Shown: positions 1 to 31,882 of the stretch, piece after piece
How positions within the stretch are numbered: the first letter of the stretch is position 1
Layout: each line of letters starts with the position of its first letter
From: an uncultured virus (IMG/VR IMGVR_UViG_3300013936_000020)
Taxonomy: Duplodnaviria > Heunggongvirae > Uroviricota > Caudoviricetes
Length of the DNA stretch: 32,005 bases
Virus record (IMG/VR): IMGVR_UViG_3300013936_000020
Reading direction: 5' to 3' (one strand)
Made by a program: the position numbers and the translations under genes
The notes under the pieces: generated by a model
Databases searched by the model: none
Told to the model about the DNA's origin: nothing
Seen by the model: only the letters and a program-made list of their open reading frames with translations

Positions 1-353
1 CCAACGTGCAGCCGAAGGAACTTCTCGGTCGTGTATTCGATGTCGTGGACTACGAGATGCGGAAGAACGGCAAGGGCGAGGTGAACTGGGTGAAGCTGCT
101 CATCTGTTACGAGGAGGTGGATGCCGACGGCGTGCTGACAGGCAAGAAGGCGATGTGCGAGGTGCATGGCGACTACCACGGCATCTACACCTATCTGCTT
201 GCTGCGGAGAAGGCTTTCGGTGGGAAAGGAGCGATATTGCCAATAGAGGATGCGGAGATTGTCAACTCCTGCGGATACATCTTCAAGGACTCCACCAACA
301 TGATGAGATACTTCGAGGATTTTATTAACAAGAATAGAAATAATAGATTATGA
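1..353 (+). CDS. Hypothetical phage protein, 5'-truncated by the window edge
   Basis: Frame is open from the window start (..NVQPKELL); the stop overlaps the next ATG (ATGA coupling at 350-353). Confidence 0.6.
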   Translation, partial: NVQPKELLGRVFDVVDYEMRKNGKGEVNWVKLLICYEEVDADGVLTGKKAMCEVHGDYHGIYTYLLAAEKAFGGKGAILPIEDAEIVNSCGYIFKDSTNMMRYFEDFINKNRNNRL

Positions 354-1117
354 TTGCAAAGAATTATATCGAGCTGCCTACTGAAGGCTTAGTAAGGGGC
401 AGTATCTTGGACGAGGGGAATGCCGTGACCGTGTATCTGGACGTACACAACGAGGAGATTCCTGTGTTTAGTGGAGACGAGACGGAATCGGAGGATGTAT
501 CGTACAAAGAGGTCAAGGTAGGCTATCCTGTGAGGGTGGAGAAGCCTCTGACGGAGGCGAGACTGGTCAACGCTGCCTTGCAACTCGCTTACGGCTTGCG
601 TGACAACGATGATGTCTCTCGCTTTAACGCCGACATGTCGGTAAAGATTACCTCTGATGCAAACGATGATGACGTGACAGAGTATCTTGGTTTCTTGCAG
701 TGGGTGAAGCTGGAGTATGCGAAGGCGACAGGAAGCGTGAGCGATCTTGATGCAGCCAAGCAACATGTGCTGTCGGAGATAGAGGCTTACGACACGTCAT
801 CTGCCGTAAACGGATTCAAGCTCAATGGTCAGACTGTATGGCTTGACAAGGCTACTCGTGTGGGACTGATGAACTCTACAAACATCGCCAAGTCAATGGG
901 AAAGGAAAGTACGGATTTGTGGCTTGGGAACGTTAAGATTGAGGTGGGATGCGACAAGGCTATTCAACTGTTGTCTGCCTTGGAGATGTACGCACTTGAG
1001 TGCTTCAACGTGACTGCTGCACACAAGAAGGAAATAGAGGAGTTGGCTACCATCGACGAGGTGGATGCATACGACATCACAATGGGCTATCCTGCACAGT
1101 TGGAAATGAAGATTTGA
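350..1117 (+). CDS. DUF4376-like tail-fibre-associated protein
   Basis: C-terminal IEAYDTSSAVNGF..WLDKATRVGL..ALEMYALECFNVTAAHK..GYP pattern typical of this Bacteroidales phage family; position upstream of lysis. Confidence 0.7.
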   Translation: MIAKNYIELPTEGLVRGSILDEGNAVTVYLDVHNEEIPVFSGDETESEDVSYKEVKVGYPVRVEKPLTEARLVNAALQLAYGLRDNDDVSRFNADMSVKITSDANDDDVTEYLGFLQWVKLEYAKATGSVSDLDAAKQHVLSEIEAYDTSSAVNGFKLNGQTVWLDKATRVGLMNSTNIAKSMGKESTDLWLGNVKIEVGCDKAIQLLSALEMYALECFNVTAAHKKEIEELATIDEVDAYDITMGYPAQLEMKI

Positions 1118-17477: not shown

Positions 17478-18170
17478 CTATTTGCTGATTATTTCTTCAA
17501 TGAATTGATTTGCGAGGATAACACGCTCTTCCATAAGTTTGATGTCCTCCTCGTTACGTTCAATGTCCGCCCAGTGGATAGGCTTTGAGAGCCAAGGGCA
17601 ATACGTAATGAAGATTCCGCTCTTTGCGTTTGTGCAGCTCATTTCAGCCATTATCTGCCAATAGTACTTCGGCTCTGTGTCTTTGAGTGAGGCTGCATCG
17701 TGGATATAAGTACGGTACTTCATGTAAGTATTGAGGTTCGGACACTTGACTTCAAGAATGCGAATATCCTTACCATCACGACCATATATTGCACCATCAG
17801 GACTTGCGGCGAAATGAGGTATCGTGTCGTGCTTGCAGGAAGAAAGCTCTACAATCTCGCTTTCTGGAAATTCCATATTCTGAAAAAGCCTAAGTGCTTC
17901 ATCTTCCTGTTCCGATCCCCACTGCATCGCCTTGGTGGTGAAAGATGTTTGGTCGAGGTAGTCTTGGAAGGCATCATCGTCATTCAAGAAATCGGGATTA
18001 AAGAGGCGTTCGGCTGCGACCTGCATAAGATACGACTTAGCCGTGTCACTCCAAACTTCATCTTTCTTGCGACCAGACTTCATAATGTCGGCTACCTTGC
18101 TCCCACAAATTGAACCGATGCGACTACGAAACCATTCCAACGAACGTTGCTCAATACCCTCTGCTATCAT
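17478..18170 (-). CDS. YqaJ / lambda-exonuclease family recombination nuclease
   Basis: QRSLEWFRSR, AMQWGSEQE, ASPDG, LEVKCP, YYWQ. Confidence 0.92.
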   Translation of the reverse strand: MIAEGIEQRSLEWFRSRIGSICGSKVADIMKSGRKKDEVWSDTAKSYLMQVAAERLFNPDFLNDDDAFQDYLDQTSFTTKAMQWGSEQEDEALRLFQNMEFPESEIVELSSCKHDTIPHFAASPDGAIYGRDGKDIRILEVKCPNLNTYMKYRTYIHDAASLKDTEPKYYWQIMAEMSCTNAKSGIFITYCPWLSKPIHWADIERNEEDIKLMEERVILANQFIEEIISK

Positions 18171-18708
18171 TTGCCTTCCTCCTTCTTAGCCGCTGCATCA
18201 GCCTTTGCAGCCTCGGCAGCTTTGGCAGCGAGATTTTCTTTCTTCTCGCTTTCAAGGTTGTCAACATACTCAGGAGCGAAAGCATCAATATCCAAGTCTT
18301 GGACGTCTGACGTGTTGGTGTTGATTACAGCTTGGTCGAAAGTAACAGCGTTCTGCATTTCAATGGACTTAGGTGCAAATTTCAATATTGATTTGAGAAC
18401 CGTCTTTTGCGCCATAGCATCAAAATCTGATTTCCATGGGGAATTGAAACCAGCACGGAAGGCTTGGCTGAACTTTGTTGCGTGAGCCTTAACCTTGTCA
18501 ATATCCCAATAAGCAACCTTTGTAAAGCCATTCAGAAGCTCGAACTTAGCCATATAGCCGATAACCTTGTCAGACTTCTTTTGTTTCTTGTCGAAAACGT
18601 AATCTTCGTCGAACTCGTCACCCGAAATATACTCACCTTCGTGGACTGGAGCTGCAAGAATCTTCTTGAATTGACCGCTGCGTTGGCAAAGTTGCAATAA
18701 ACCTAAAT
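18167..18708 (-). CDS. recT: RecT single-strand annealing protein, exon 2
   Basis: LGLLQLCQRSGQ..PWKSDFDAMAQKTVLK..PKSIE; splicing to exon 1 gives a 279-aa RecT. Confidence 0.92.
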
Positions 18709-19516
18709 CACTAACCCACCGATTTACCATTTCAGTGGAGTGGACTATCTCTTCACCATTACAGGTGTCTCGCACTTGGGCGTGTGATAAATCCACGCCT
18801 ACTCGGTTACACTCATCACCGATAGTCTCTACACTCCAATATTTCCAAACAAATCCTCGAAAATGTTTTCTAACTCCTTTAAGAGCCTTACAGAGCCTGT
18901 CGTTCCCACATTGAAAATGTTCTGCTGCATCTTTTATAGAGCGGAAATAGCAAAAGCTAAATTCATCCTCTGTGTACCCATAAATGGCTTTATAAATAGG
19001 AGGATGCGGAATTTTTCCTTTATTAGCTTTCGATATTTTTATTCTTGACTCAAAAGTATGTTTCTTTCCAAGATTTGCTACCCTCAGTTTTTGACGTGTT
19101 TCTTCGCTTACCGAATGTCCGATTTTTGGTCCAGTAAGTTGTGCTAACTTGACTTTCTTCTCTTTATCGGTTTTTCTTTCCCACTGTGCTCGTGCGCACT
19201 TTGCAAGATAAGCACGTTCATTGTCGGAAGGATGATAACCTTTAGAGCCCTTGCCTCCAATAGTCATATTATAAGATGCAGAAAGTTTGTTTATCCAGAA
19301 AATTTCCTTTGAATCAAGCTCTTCTTTTTGGCATTCCTCTAAAACCGAAAATGTGAAATTCCCAAATCCGTATTTTTTTAAAGCTCTACAGATAAGCCTA
19401 TTCCCTTTGGTGCTACAAGGACATCTGTGCTCCATCATTCTACGATGTAAATCCACACTTTGCCCGACGTATATATCCCCTGTAATATTATTAGTTAAAG
19501 AATAAATACCAATCAT
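18167..19516 (-). CDS. Intron-encoded GIY-YIG homing endonuclease with NUMOD repeats, open in frame into recT exon 2
   Basis: GIYSLTN..IYVGQS..R; NUMOD3-like HSVSEETRQKL/HTFESRIKIS; NUMOD1-like FRSIKDAA..GFVWKY; no stop before 18167. Confidence 0.9.
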   Translation of the reverse strand: MIGIYSLTNNITGDIYVGQSVDLHRRMMEHRCPCSTKGNRLICRALKKYGFGNFTFSVLEECQKEELDSKEIFWINKLSASYNMTIGGKGSKGYHPSDNERAYLAKCARAQWERKTDKEKKVKLAQLTGPKIGHSVSEETRQKLRVANLGKKHTFESRIKISKANKGKIPHPPIYKAIYGYTEDEFSFCYFRSIKDAAEHFQCGNDRLCKALKGVRKHFRGFVWKYWSVETIGDECNRVGVDLSHAQVRDTCNGEEIVHSTEMVNRWVSDLGLLQLCQRSGQFKKILAAPVHEGEYISGDEFDEDYVFDKKQKKSDKVIGYMAKFELLNGFTKVAYWDIDKVKAHATKFSQAFRAGFNSPWKSDFDAMAQKTVLKSILKFAPKSIEMQNAVTFDQAVINTNTSDVQDLDIDAFAPEYVDNLESEKKENLAAKAAEAAKADAAAKKEEGK

Positions 19517-19638
19517 TGTTTAAAAATATTAAAGCACGGTATTGCCCTTTATTGGAGGGTTTCACCGTTAGCCATACATAGTATGACACCGTTTTTTCTT
19601 ACGTTCACGAGATTTTACTTGACCATAACTTTTGGTTT
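18709..19638 (-). mobile_element. Group I self-splicing intron (IA-like, 930 nt) in recT
   Basis: Exon UUGGCU pairs with IGS GGUCAA including a U.G at the 5' splice site; terminal G 18709; P7 strands AGAGACUA (18823-18830) and GAUAGUCC; P3 UCUCGU/GCGAGA; P4/P5 CGGUGAAACCCU..AGGGCAAUACCG; two extra hairpins between P7 and P3; splicing restores QFQIG-Y-LGLLQL. Confidence 0.93.
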
Positions 19639-19936
19639 AGCCAATTTGAAACTGTGCCTTCTTTCCGTAAGGGATGATGTAGCACTGACCCAATGTAGGG
19701 ATAACCTGCAACTGCATCGTGGCTGCAACCATCGCTGCTCCGATAATGCTCATTGGCTCTGCGTTGCGAAGTTGTGGGTTTCCGTTGGCTACACTGATAA
19801 CCGAACTCATAAAGCTGTTAGCCATCTGTGGGCTATTCCAAACCTCGTTAAGTTTACCAACAACGGCAGGAGAGTGCATCAACTCTCCCAACGACATACC
19901 AGTATTTTGTTGCTGCGTTGTAACTTGTGTTGTCAT
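19639..19936 (-). CDS. recT: RecT single-strand annealing protein, exon 1
   Basis: SIIGAAMVAA..L..LGQCYIIPY..AQFQIG; unspliced reading stops at the TAA created by the exon/intron junction. Confidence 0.92.
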
Positions 19937-22381: not shown

Positions 22382-22464
22382 CGGTGGGTGTAGGGATCGA
22401 ACCTACGAATCGTTTCCGACTTACACGTTAGCAATGTGCTGCATTACCGCTCTGCCAACCCACC
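22382..22464 (-). tRNA. tRNA-Ser(GCT)
   Basis: GGTGGGT/ACCCACC acceptor, loop TTGCTAA, long variable arm, GGTTCGATCC T-arm, G discriminator; one mismatch in the anticodon stem. Confidence 0.9.
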
Positions 22465-23240: not shown

Positions 23241-23312
23241 TCGCCCGAAGGAGAATCGAACTCCTAATCTCGGTTTAGGAAACCGATGTTTTATCCATTG
23301 AACTATCGGGCG
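23241..23312 (-). tRNA. tRNA-Arg(CCT)
   Basis: Full cloverleaf: CGCCCGA/TCGGGCG, TCGGT-TTCCTAA-ACCGA, AGGAG-TTCGATT-CTCCT. Confidence 0.93.
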
Positions 23313-23699: not shown

Positions 23700-24362
23700 C
23701 TAAAAGTACTTCTTTTGAAACTTAGACCGTAGATAGTTCACGACAGCATCGCCTGACTTCAAGAAACCATCCTCAATGAGCATTGCCACCTGTCTTTCAA
23801 GCTCAAAGTACTCACGTTGTTTCTCTTCTGTTCCATACTCGTTGCGAATCATGTGCTCGTGCTTACCAACGATAATCCAATTAAGTCCTTTTGCGATAGT
23901 CTGCATAGTCTTTTGCATTTCGTTTGACTTCACGATAGTTCTAACAGCGGAAGCGAGTTTCTTGTATGCCTCTCCTGCTTCGTTACGATAACTTAGCATT
24001 TGGTCTGAAACAAATTTCAATACCTTAACCTTGAATGTCGGGCTTAGCCACATAGCAAAGTCAATAAAGAGGAGTGGGTGCATCCAAGTGCCACCATTTT
24101 TTCCTCTAACAGAAACATAAGCAGGATTCTTTTTATCAAGATTTTCTTCACTAATCAAAGCTTTCAAATACTCCTGTGTTGATTTGAGGCTCAGATAGTT
24201 ATCAATGTCCTTCTTTTTATAATCCCCATTTTCGTGGGTATTTAAATTTTCTGGACTATTCCACTGCCTAAGCAAATCTGTTGCGTTGAACATTCCGTCT
24301 TTTGTCCGCTGCTCAACTTTTAAATTGTCAAGCGGTCTTATCATTACCTGATTGGTGTTCAT
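23700..24362 (-). CDS. KilA-N domain protein (antirepressor-like)
   Basis: QRTKDGMFNATDL..RGKNGGTWMHPLLFIDFAMWLSP.F. Confidence 0.9.
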   Translation of the reverse strand: MNTNQVMIRPLDNLKVEQRTKDGMFNATDLLRQWNSPENLNTHENGDYKKKDIDNYLSLKSTQEYLKALISEENLDKKNPAYVSVRGKNGGTWMHPLLFIDFAMWLSPTFKVKVLKFVSDQMLSYRNEAGEAYKKLASAVRTIVKSNEMQKTMQTIAKGLNWIIVGKHEHMIRNEYGTEEKQREYFELERQVAMLIEDGFLKSGDAVVNYLRSKFQKKYF

Positions 24363-31225: not shown

Positions 31226-31882
31226 CTATTTCTTTTGTAACACTGATGGTAAATATTTCTCACTATACTTCTTTCTTAAATATTCAATTACTTGGTCGTA
31301 TGAGTGAATAAAACCATCGTTGATAAGCATAGCAACCTGACGTTCCATGTTGAATAACTCGTATTGCTTGCTCTCTTCACCTTGTTTATTGCGCATTTCG
31401 TGTTCGTGCTGACCGAACACTACGTAATTGATAGCCTGTGCTATTTTGCACATAGCCACAGGCATAAACTTCTTGCTTACTATCTTTTGCACTGCTGCAC
31501 CAAGCTCCCTATATGCGTCCCCTGCATCGTTTCTGTACTTCAACATCTGGTCGTACACAAACTTGATAACCTGCACCTCGAAACGAGGATTGAGCCACAT
31601 AGCAAACTTAACAAACAATATCGGGTGCATCCAAGTACCACCATTATTACCACGAGTTTTCAAATACGCAGAATTTTGCGTATTTAAATTTTCCTCTTCC
31701 ATCAAGGCAGAAATAAATTCCTTGGTATTGTCGTTATCAAAGAATTTGGTAATCTCCTTCTTCTCTCCACTTGCATCATTCCATTGTTTGAGCAAGTTTG
31801 TAGCATTGAACATACTATCCTTCGTTCTCTGCTCGACCAAAAAGTTACCCATTGGTCTCTTCATTACTTGGTTTGTAACCAT
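31226..31882 (-). CDS. KilA-N domain protein, paralog of 23700-24362
   Basis: QRTKDSMFNATNL..RGNNGGTWMHPILFVKFAMWLNP.F. Confidence 0.9.
   Translation of the reverse strand: MVTNQVMKRPMGNFLVEQRTKDSMFNATNLLKQWNDASGEKKEITKFFDNDNTKEFISALMEEENLNTQNSAYLKTRGNNGGTWMHPILFVKFAMWLNPRFEVQVIKFVYDQMLKYRNDAGDAYRELGAAVQKIVSKKFMPVAMCKIAQAINYVVFGQHEHEMRNKQGEESKQYELFNMERQVAMLINDGFIHSYDQVIEYLRKKYSEKYLPSVLQKK

Follow-up and report, generated by a model that had tools for sequence, protein, structure and literature searches.

Core creep, a term coined by Edgell, Chalamcharla and Belfort (2011; BMC Biol 9:22, PMC3073962), describes the loss of the stop codon of an intron-encoded open reading frame (ORF), which then extends. 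In that article, overlaps of 9–81 nucleotides (nt) with the core are given in Table 1, the overlap of I-TevI being 20 nt, and two predictions are made, namely that the extent of the overlap should be variable and that the extension should be dispensable. Here we describe a related situation in a stretch of DNA of 32,005 nt (the window) from an uncultured virus of the Caudoviricetes (IMG/VR record IMGVR_UViG_3300013936_000020). Its recT gene contains what is, judged from the sequence, very probably a working self-splicing group I intron, and the GIY-YIG endonuclease ORF of this intron lacks a stop of its own, runs through the ribozyme core and the 3' splice site and ends only at the stop codon of recT. 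With moderate confidence, we favour the reading that the stop-less ORF reflects core creep that has gone past the 3' splice site of a mobile recT intron and that the RecT tail acquired in this way would be mostly neutral.

The ORF (19516..18167, minus strand) is uninterrupted over 449 amino acids (aa), as a preliminary description of this DNA had stated when it traced the endonuclease frame through core and 3' splice site into exon 2. Pfam profiles place a GIY-YIG domain at residues 2–83, NUMOD3 at 150–170, an I-HmuI NUMOD-like segment at 190–224 and positions 64–191 of the RecT profile at residues 272–399, the nuclease families being PF01541 (E 8e-10), PF07460 and PF22083. In 16 sequences the catalytic columns G3, I4, Y5, Y16, V17, G18, R25 and R26 are nearly invariant and H30, E71 and N83 are invariant; the N-terminal part of the ORF has the domain characters of a GIY-YIG homing endonuclease resembling I-TevI and is a predicted enzyme. 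Further downstream the ORF crosses P6', P7, P7.1, P7.2, P3', P8, P9 and the 3' splice site, contains the junction peptide WVSDLGLLQLCQR and ends at the recT stop, which overlaps the exonuclease gene as ATGA (ORF ends at 18167 for recT and at 18170 for the exonuclease), again in agreement with the preliminary description.

Directly 3' of P6 the core reads GUAGAGACUAUC. One of its three frames hits a UAG immediately and another a UGA in P7.1, and the third is open (GUA GAG ACU AUC GGU GAU GAG UGU AAC CGA GUA GG). Because the window has one extra base between a conserved UAU and the UAG beside P7, its ORF misses this UAG and enters the open frame. The distance from P7 to the splice site, 124 nt, puts the window frame in phase with exon 2, and since the core frame is both stop-free and in phase, the ORF is not closed before the recT stop. 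In the two remaining real frames of the P7-to-splice-site stretch there are 4 and 8 stops. This anatomy agrees with the earlier proposal of three RNA states with different coding outcomes, namely spliced RNA for RecT, unspliced RNA for a 99-aa upstream ORF (19936..19637, minus strand; RecT profile positions 2–61 in Pfam) plus the fusion, and an excised linear intron without a stop. The count made earlier for the excised intron is also correct: in the linear form the ORF has 269 codons and 0 stops, and a full-length circle adds 23 codons, followed by a TAA.

The limits of the intron are given by comparison with uninterrupted recT genes. recT is split after codon 99, at the DNA level after the first base of a Tyr codon, and the last bases of exon 1 and of the intron are U19639 and G18709, respectively. 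The joined exons read QIG-Y-LGLLQL and comprise 279 aa, which is the reading and the length of the intronless RecT P0018. Removal of the insert restores the recT frame exactly, and the RecT domain is complete after splicing (profile 2–61 plus 64–191). Among the best 80 metagenome loci, 70 possess a contiguous recT with the same junction, 9 an insert, and 1 is cut off. An ORF-less intron copy of about 260 nt occupies the same recT site in locus L004.

The case for an intron rests on this anatomy and on covariation, because Rfam gives no support. Searches with the Rfam group I models yield no match in the window even at E values up to 10, and none at the gathering threshold in L004, L007, L008, L009 and L013; for the ORF-less L004 there is a partial, weak match of its P4/P5 part to RF00028 (10.1 bits, E 5.2). 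This failure is possibly due to the 808-nt ORF in P6 together with two extra hairpins between P3 and P4, and the intron family may be a subclass that is poorly covered by the curated model. Covariation was assessed in an alignment of the 3' halves of 14 loci, nine of them recT introns and five from other host genes (the host gene of L013 not being assigned). Over these 14 sequences, 27 pairs in P7 (with a bulged A), P7.1, P7.2, P8 and P9 are formed in 96.2% of the cells, compared with 30–41% in controls with partners slid by 1–3 columns. Both sides change in 16 of the 27 pairs, and the P7 pair at alignment columns 24/113 switches from G-C to A-U and C-G. The covariation score is 0.507 versus 0.044–0.083 for the slid controls, and 0 of 500 shuffles attain the observed values. 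The order of helices P7, P7.1, P7.2, P3' and P8 is what we take to be that of subgroup IA2, as in T4 td.

The 5' half has an unusual layout. All 6 base pairs of the P3 pseudoknot are formed in the ten loci with a single anchor (10/10), in six sequence variants; in L022 there are two anchors, the first of which is spurious, and the true strand is identical to that of the window. An alternative P3, formed by the 3' strand of hairpin B and the stretch before P8, fits the GC-rich loci but fails in the window, L007 and L009 and was rejected. Both extra hairpins, A and B, are formed in each of 12 sequences and show compensating changes, and the two-hairpin layout, with an invariant bulged G in one of them, is also present in L003–L006, L009, L010, L173 and L193. 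An equivalent of P1 in L022 (a member of lineage B, see below) and in L193 consists of GGGU with GCCC; both of these loci possess a P2, and the window lineage is without it. P6 is a stem of 19 base pairs (−18.4 kcal/mol), the 3' strand of which corresponds to the last domain codons of the nuclease, and the nuclease ORF fills its loop. As a separate observation, near-identical P7, P7.1 and P7.2 cores occur in other phage genes, on the minus strand of L007, L011 and L012 and also in L008, L009, L010 and L013. L013 carries two core copies, at about 1374 and 2520, and in L009 and L010 a GIY-YIG ORF begins in the P8 loop instead of in P6.

The same open frame is found in the independent assemblies L001, L014, L015 and L020 (99–100% protein identity) as well as in L016–L019 and L021 (87–88%), L002 (81%) and L022 (51%). 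Because it recurs in this way, the fusion is not a sequencing or assembly error, and the removal of a stop by such an error, which had been envisaged earlier, is ruled out. The fusion clusters form two lineages, lineage A being 69–99% identical to the window and lineage B, located in a different RecT, about 50%. Another 104 of the 120 listed protein matches are RecT proteins of 265–300 aa, and those sampled, P0018 and P0052, are uninterrupted. Fusions are also present among the 150 best representatives of 50%-identity clusters obtained in a scan with the nuclease only. In the 10 of these fusion representatives scanned with Pfam, RecT always begins at profile positions 56–63, and they are 35–44% identical to the window in the nuclease and 30–45% over the whole length; the eleventh is P0005 of lineage A. 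All 11 share a linker of 43–45 residues of the form SVET...[ED][ED]IV...D/G, the slash here and below standing for the splice site.

In other relatives the nuclease stops at a variety of positions. It ends with ..VWYVV at the P7 UAG in the GC-rich recT introns L003, L005 and L173, the open frame of L006 ends with ..VGFVV at this UAG, and 228-aa relatives end there with ..YVV. The proteins P0139, P0141 and P0144 use the frame of the window and terminate after P7.1, and at least 15 further nuclease representatives terminate inside the core. In L193 the recT intron keeps phase with exon 2, and yet its frame is interrupted by two TGAs, in the loops of P7.2 and P8. P0266 extends through the entire core to ..ENLRVLR, one codon past the splice site, an ending that fits a one-base phase error followed by the UAA from A/UAA/AGG at the start of exon 2, and P0241 and P0243 terminate before P7. 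These last three proteins belong to the same clade as the window, a group of 14 rows with a Shimodaira-Hasegawa-like approximate likelihood ratio test (SH-aLRT) support of 90. Termini therefore range from before P7 over the P7 UAG, the region after P7.1, the loops and the codon past the splice site to the recT stop, and the end of the ORF, as is characteristic of core creep, lies in the core at a position that varies among relatives. The preliminary description had suggested that conservation of the open junction be checked in related introns: it is kept in close relatives, but other recT introns stop at the UAG or in loops, or are out of phase, which in part is the outcome that the description had named as refuting its reading.

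A comparison of phase, for which 8 of 10 loci were scored, gives a similar picture. L005 possesses the same stop-free and in-phase frame of 124 nt, although its nuclease already terminates at the P7 UAG; in L003, L004 and L006 the stretch is 126 nt long and does not match the phase of exon 2. Fused forms make up 11 of the 29 ORFs that enter the open frame, and among the recT introns that do not use it, 1 of 4 scored (L005) is open and in phase. We see no clear excess of fused forms over this rough neutral baseline, which provides a weak test. In a quick maximum-likelihood tree built from 157 nuclease domains, 12 changes of state are required to account for the 20 fused rows, at least 6 of them being forced by well-supported branches, and fused and stop-in-core forms are sisters in the pairs P0275/P0278 (support 99), P0303/P0283 (96) and P0271/P0252 (98). 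Lineage A includes degenerate nuclease genes (L002, P0121, and P0156); degenerate copies are part of the usual life cycle of homing elements. Intron-plus (9), intronless (70) and degenerate alleles exist side by side, which, like the low dN/dS of the nuclease given below, bears only indirectly on cleavage of the intronless allele and on homing.

The 42 codons of the linker encoded by the core differ from those of L022 with proportions of synonymous (pS) and nonsynonymous (pN) differences of 0.195 and 0.209 (ratio 1.09), and the pN/pS ratio to L002 is 1.14. The flanks of the linker have pS values of 0.78–0.89. For the nuclease compared with that of L016, pS is 0.55 and pN 0.105, with a ratio of nonsynonymous to synonymous substitution rates (dN/dS) of 0.11, and for RecT exon 2 the pS and pN values are 0.76–0.89 and 0.06–0.27, respectively. 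The linker is conserved as RNA, without selection at the protein level, and the nuclease is under purifying selection. In an AlphaFold model, residues 224–281 have a predicted local distance difference test score (pLDDT) of 27–32. The extension is thus unconstrained as protein, in its substitution ratios as in its low pLDDT, and this is the other character of core creep. Purifying selection on the nuclease implies that the ORF has a product that works, be it the full 449-aa fusion or a form derived from it by processing.

The fusion noticed earlier is confirmed and generalised by these data, and the adaptive reading given to it is unsupported; most likely, the RecT tail is tolerated as a passenger and has not been selected as a device. 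A number of observations weigh against a neutral tail. Sixteen clusters (62 member sequences) among the 120 listed protein matches are nuclease-RecT fusions of 425–460 aa, and so are 11 of the 150 best nuclease representatives (418–488 aa). All six lineage-A clusters of at least 246 aa are fused, the lineage-A counts being lower bounds from a word-index search that missed lineage B, and fused linkers differ by multiples of three only, although this necessarily holds for fused forms. Lineages A and B have kept the open frame while synonymous sites of the nuclease became saturated. The 127-nt stretch from P7 to the splice site is stop-free in frame in 6.3% of 20000 shuffles, which with a chance of 1/3 for the phase gives about 2% for a single open, in-phase instance. 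A stop would be created by 25 single substitutions in codons 224–271 of the window, of which only about 2–5 fall on loop sites that visibly tolerate change. As a guide to the survival of the frame this number is of limited use, since substitution in the core departs from the neutral rate and recombination may separate the core from the nuclease. For most unfused sisters, the host gene is not established and the stop is read from the end of the protein; for P0266 and P0278, viral contigs yielded distant loci or none. Some of the stop-in-core proteins may be cut by a contig end, P0252, for example, lying on a contig of 1219 nt. Frequency of the fusion, low chance and persistence could together reflect selection for read-through. 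In that case read-through would be kept for control of the nuclease via unspliced RNA, for coupling to the exonuclease, for keeping the excised intron silent, as a message lacking a stop, and/or for a RecT tail by which recombination proteins are recruited to the break. The presence of the fusion in many diverged lineages with in-frame indels only, the fused lineage-A clusters and the low single-instance chance speak for such a device, lineages A and B share a conserved acidic C-terminal motif, D..IDAF..EYVDN, and the order recT, exonuclease, SSB-like, NinB/Orf-like makes a link with recombination conceivable. Against this, the linker has a dN/dS of about 1, L005 leaves its open frame unused, fused and unfused forms alternate between sisters, even in the window's clade with P0266, P0241 and P0243, the fused share of 11/29 is no higher than the rough neutral baseline of 1/4 scored, and the fusion is without the first 99 residues of RecT. 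We consider selection for read-through unlikely. More specific, and a little less probable still, is a chimera of nuclease and RecT(100–279), made from unspliced RNA only, that would load annealing protein and exonuclease at the break and so promote homing; its RecT part would supply the oligomer interface and the acidic C-terminal tail, and the non-stop excised intron and the start hidden in P6 would shut the nuclease off after splicing. The splicing-controlled switch and nuclease tether proposed in the preliminary description find no sign of selection in the linker ratio, the unused L005 frame or the scattered fused state; such a switch is possible, but its own logic is all that speaks for it.

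The fusion might also not accumulate at all, if the folded core makes ribosomes stall or detach or if the linker is cleaved, so that the working enzyme would have about 230–270 aa. The linker is predicted to be unstructured, relatives work with ends spread over a range that starts ahead of P7 and reaches just beyond the splice site, and exon-fused organellar intron proteins undergo proteolytic processing, according to PMC3073962. Translating ribosomes, however, normally unwind such helices, and no cleavage motif was identified; we doubt that partial translation is the explanation. Finally, recT might be permanently split by an inserted nuclease gene and made as a 99-aa stub plus the fusion, with no splicing taking place. 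The Rfam results, with no group I match on the window and 10 bits on L004, and the layout of the 5' half could be read in this way. Strong covariation across ten helices (the P3 pseudoknot being one of them), the U.G pair at the 5' site and the G at the 3' end, the exact restoration of the RecT reading and the ORF-less copy at the same site in L004 argue against it, and we regard a recT without splicing as very improbable.

Under core creep past the 3' splice site, loss of the stop would have extended the ORF to the next in-frame stop, which here lies beyond that site. Spliced RNA would give the 279-aa RecT. On unspliced RNA, ribosomes coming from exon 1 would halt at the U/AA of the splice site, favouring folding, and the nuclease would be completed only on this RNA, as a 449-aa protein of nuclease, linker, and RecT(100–279). 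P6, once formed, would hide the start of the nuclease, so that translation of the latter would take place mainly on nascent or unfolded precursor. A ribosome starting at the nuclease would unwind P6', P7, P3' and P8, block splicing of that molecule while passing and continue to the recT stop, which adjoins the start of the exonuclease. The excised linear intron would be a non-stop message, and its product would be rescued and tagged for decay. Tagging of non-stop products is known from trans-translation. The steps concerning ribosomes and folding are inferred from the established behaviour of bacterial group I introns, as described in PMC3073962 and PMC3984707.

Table 1. Features of the split recT locus, with positions in the window
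Feature	Position	Strand	Basis or remark
recT exon 1, 99 codons and first base of Tyr codon	19639..19936	minus	ORF; Pfam RecT profile 2-61, E 6e-12
UAA in exon-1 frame across 5' splice site (U/AA)	19637..19639	minus	relatives have U/GA or U/AA there
Group I-like intron, 930 nt, last base G18709 (omega-G)	18709..19638	minus	junction compared with intronless recT; covarying helices
P1: exon strand UUGGCU (19644..19639) and guide GGUCAA (19624..19619), U.G at splice site	19619..19644	minus	read from sequence
P3 5' strand UCUCGU (19612..19607), pairs with GCGAGA (18773..18768), pseudoknot	19607..19612	minus	covariation
Hairpins A (19604..19588, conserved bulged G) and B (19587..19571, 7 base pairs)	19571..19604	minus	between P3 and J3/4
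P4 (CGGUG/UACCG) around P5 (CCCU/AGGG)	19537..19567	minus	P4 5/5 pairs in 12/12 sequences
P6 5' strand: 18 nt before nuclease AUG and its A; pairs with 18852..18834	19516..19534	minus	19-base-pair duplex
Entire stop-less ORF, 449 aa, readable on unspliced RNA	18167..19516	minus	ORF list, Pfam, protein search
GIY-YIG homing endonuclease proper (predicted), codons 1-228	18833..19516	minus	Pfam; dN/dS 0.11 compared with L016; catalytic columns conserved
Core-encoded linker, codons 229-270	18709..18832	minus	27 pairs, 96.2% of cells paired; dN/dS about 1; pLDDT 27-32
UAG beside P7, nuclease stop in relatives; out of frame here (codon positions 2-3-1)	18829..18831	minus	relatives
P7 5' strand	18829..18823	minus	covariation
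P7.1	18822..18803	minus	covariation
P7.2	18799..18779	minus	covariation
P3'	18773..18768	minus	covariation
P8	18767..18754	minus	covariation
P7 3' strand	18747..18742	minus	covariation
P9	18738..18716	minus	covariation
recT exon 2, also C-terminal 179 residues of the 449-aa fusion ORF	18167..18708	minus	RecT profile 64-191, E 7e-25
YqaJ/RecE-like exonuclease; start overlaps recT stop as ATGA	17478..18170	minus	ORFs, Pfam

On the minus strand, recT is followed by the gene for the YqaJ/RecE-like exonuclease and by genes for a DUF3127 protein resembling single-stranded DNA-binding protein (SSB) and for a NinB/Orf-like mediator (Table 1), and an integrase, a repressor-like gene and an endolysin are encoded elsewhere in the window. 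The split recT belongs to the recombination module of a temperate phage from the gut. In a blastn comparison of the window with phage records, the sole match consists of 72 nt of recT from a Leuconostoc phage. The ATGA overlap between recT and the exonuclease gene is not universal, as in some close relatives they are separated by 230–640 nt, apparently with an extra gene (L015, L017 and L002 compared with L014, L016 and L023). Two tRNA genes (22382..22464 and 23241..23312, minus strand; 52.8 and 62.3 bits), the first with a long variable arm, are situated between the recombination module and the repressor/integrase region. Two paralogous ORFs on the minus strand, 23700..24362 (220 aa) and 31226..31882 (218 aa), belong to the same PHROG families, which are annotated variously as amidase or transcriptional regulator. 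In L004, matches to RAGATH-18 RNA above gathering are present at 272..332 and 652..711 (59.5 and 48.8 bits), upstream of the exonuclease-recT genes.

If the fusion is made, it would be a natural homing nuclease whose completion requires unspliced RNA and which carries two thirds of the recombinase it has invaded. It would then offer a simple system for the competition between translation and ribozyme folding on one bacterial message and would test whether core creep has any limit. For annotation this means that metagenome proteins of 445–490 aa combining GIY-YIG and RecT are read-throughs of unspliced introns and not a new domain architecture, and that the intron family escapes the Rfam group I model.

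Our searches of the full-text literature, largely outside subscription journals, met with no account of a homing-nuclease ORF fused to a downstream exon or of a comparable recT intron. The comparison with described systems that follows draws, for the introns of phage and Bacillus and for core creep itself, on PMC3073962. Organellar intron proteins fused to the upstream exon are well known and likewise contain host-gene residues translated from unspliced RNA. They employ the 5' exon and a borrowed start and are processed, whereas the ORF of the window has its own start and takes the 3' exon and a borrowed stop. In T4 td, as in the window, a group I intron in a phage gene carries a GIY-YIG ORF in the P6 loop, the 3' end of the ORF supplies bases of P6a/P7, the region of the start is sequestered in RNA structure, ribosomes on the core impair splicing and an in-frame stop follows the 5' splice site. 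I-TevI, however, overlaps the core by 20 nt and possesses its own stop, whereas the ORF of the window overlaps the whole 3' half of it (about 145 nt, from P6' to the last G) and in addition 542 nt of exon 2, without a stop of its own. The GIY-YIG nuclease of Bacillus thuringiensis nrdF, also encoded in P6a, overlaps P6a/P7/P7.1/7.1a by 56 nt and has taken the same route into the core as the frame of the window, but it stops after P7.1, as P0139, P0141 and P0144 do. Both predictions of core creep, variable extent and an extension unconstrained as protein, hold at the recT locus, and whereas the published 3' examples end within the intron, the ORF of the window crosses the 3' splice site.

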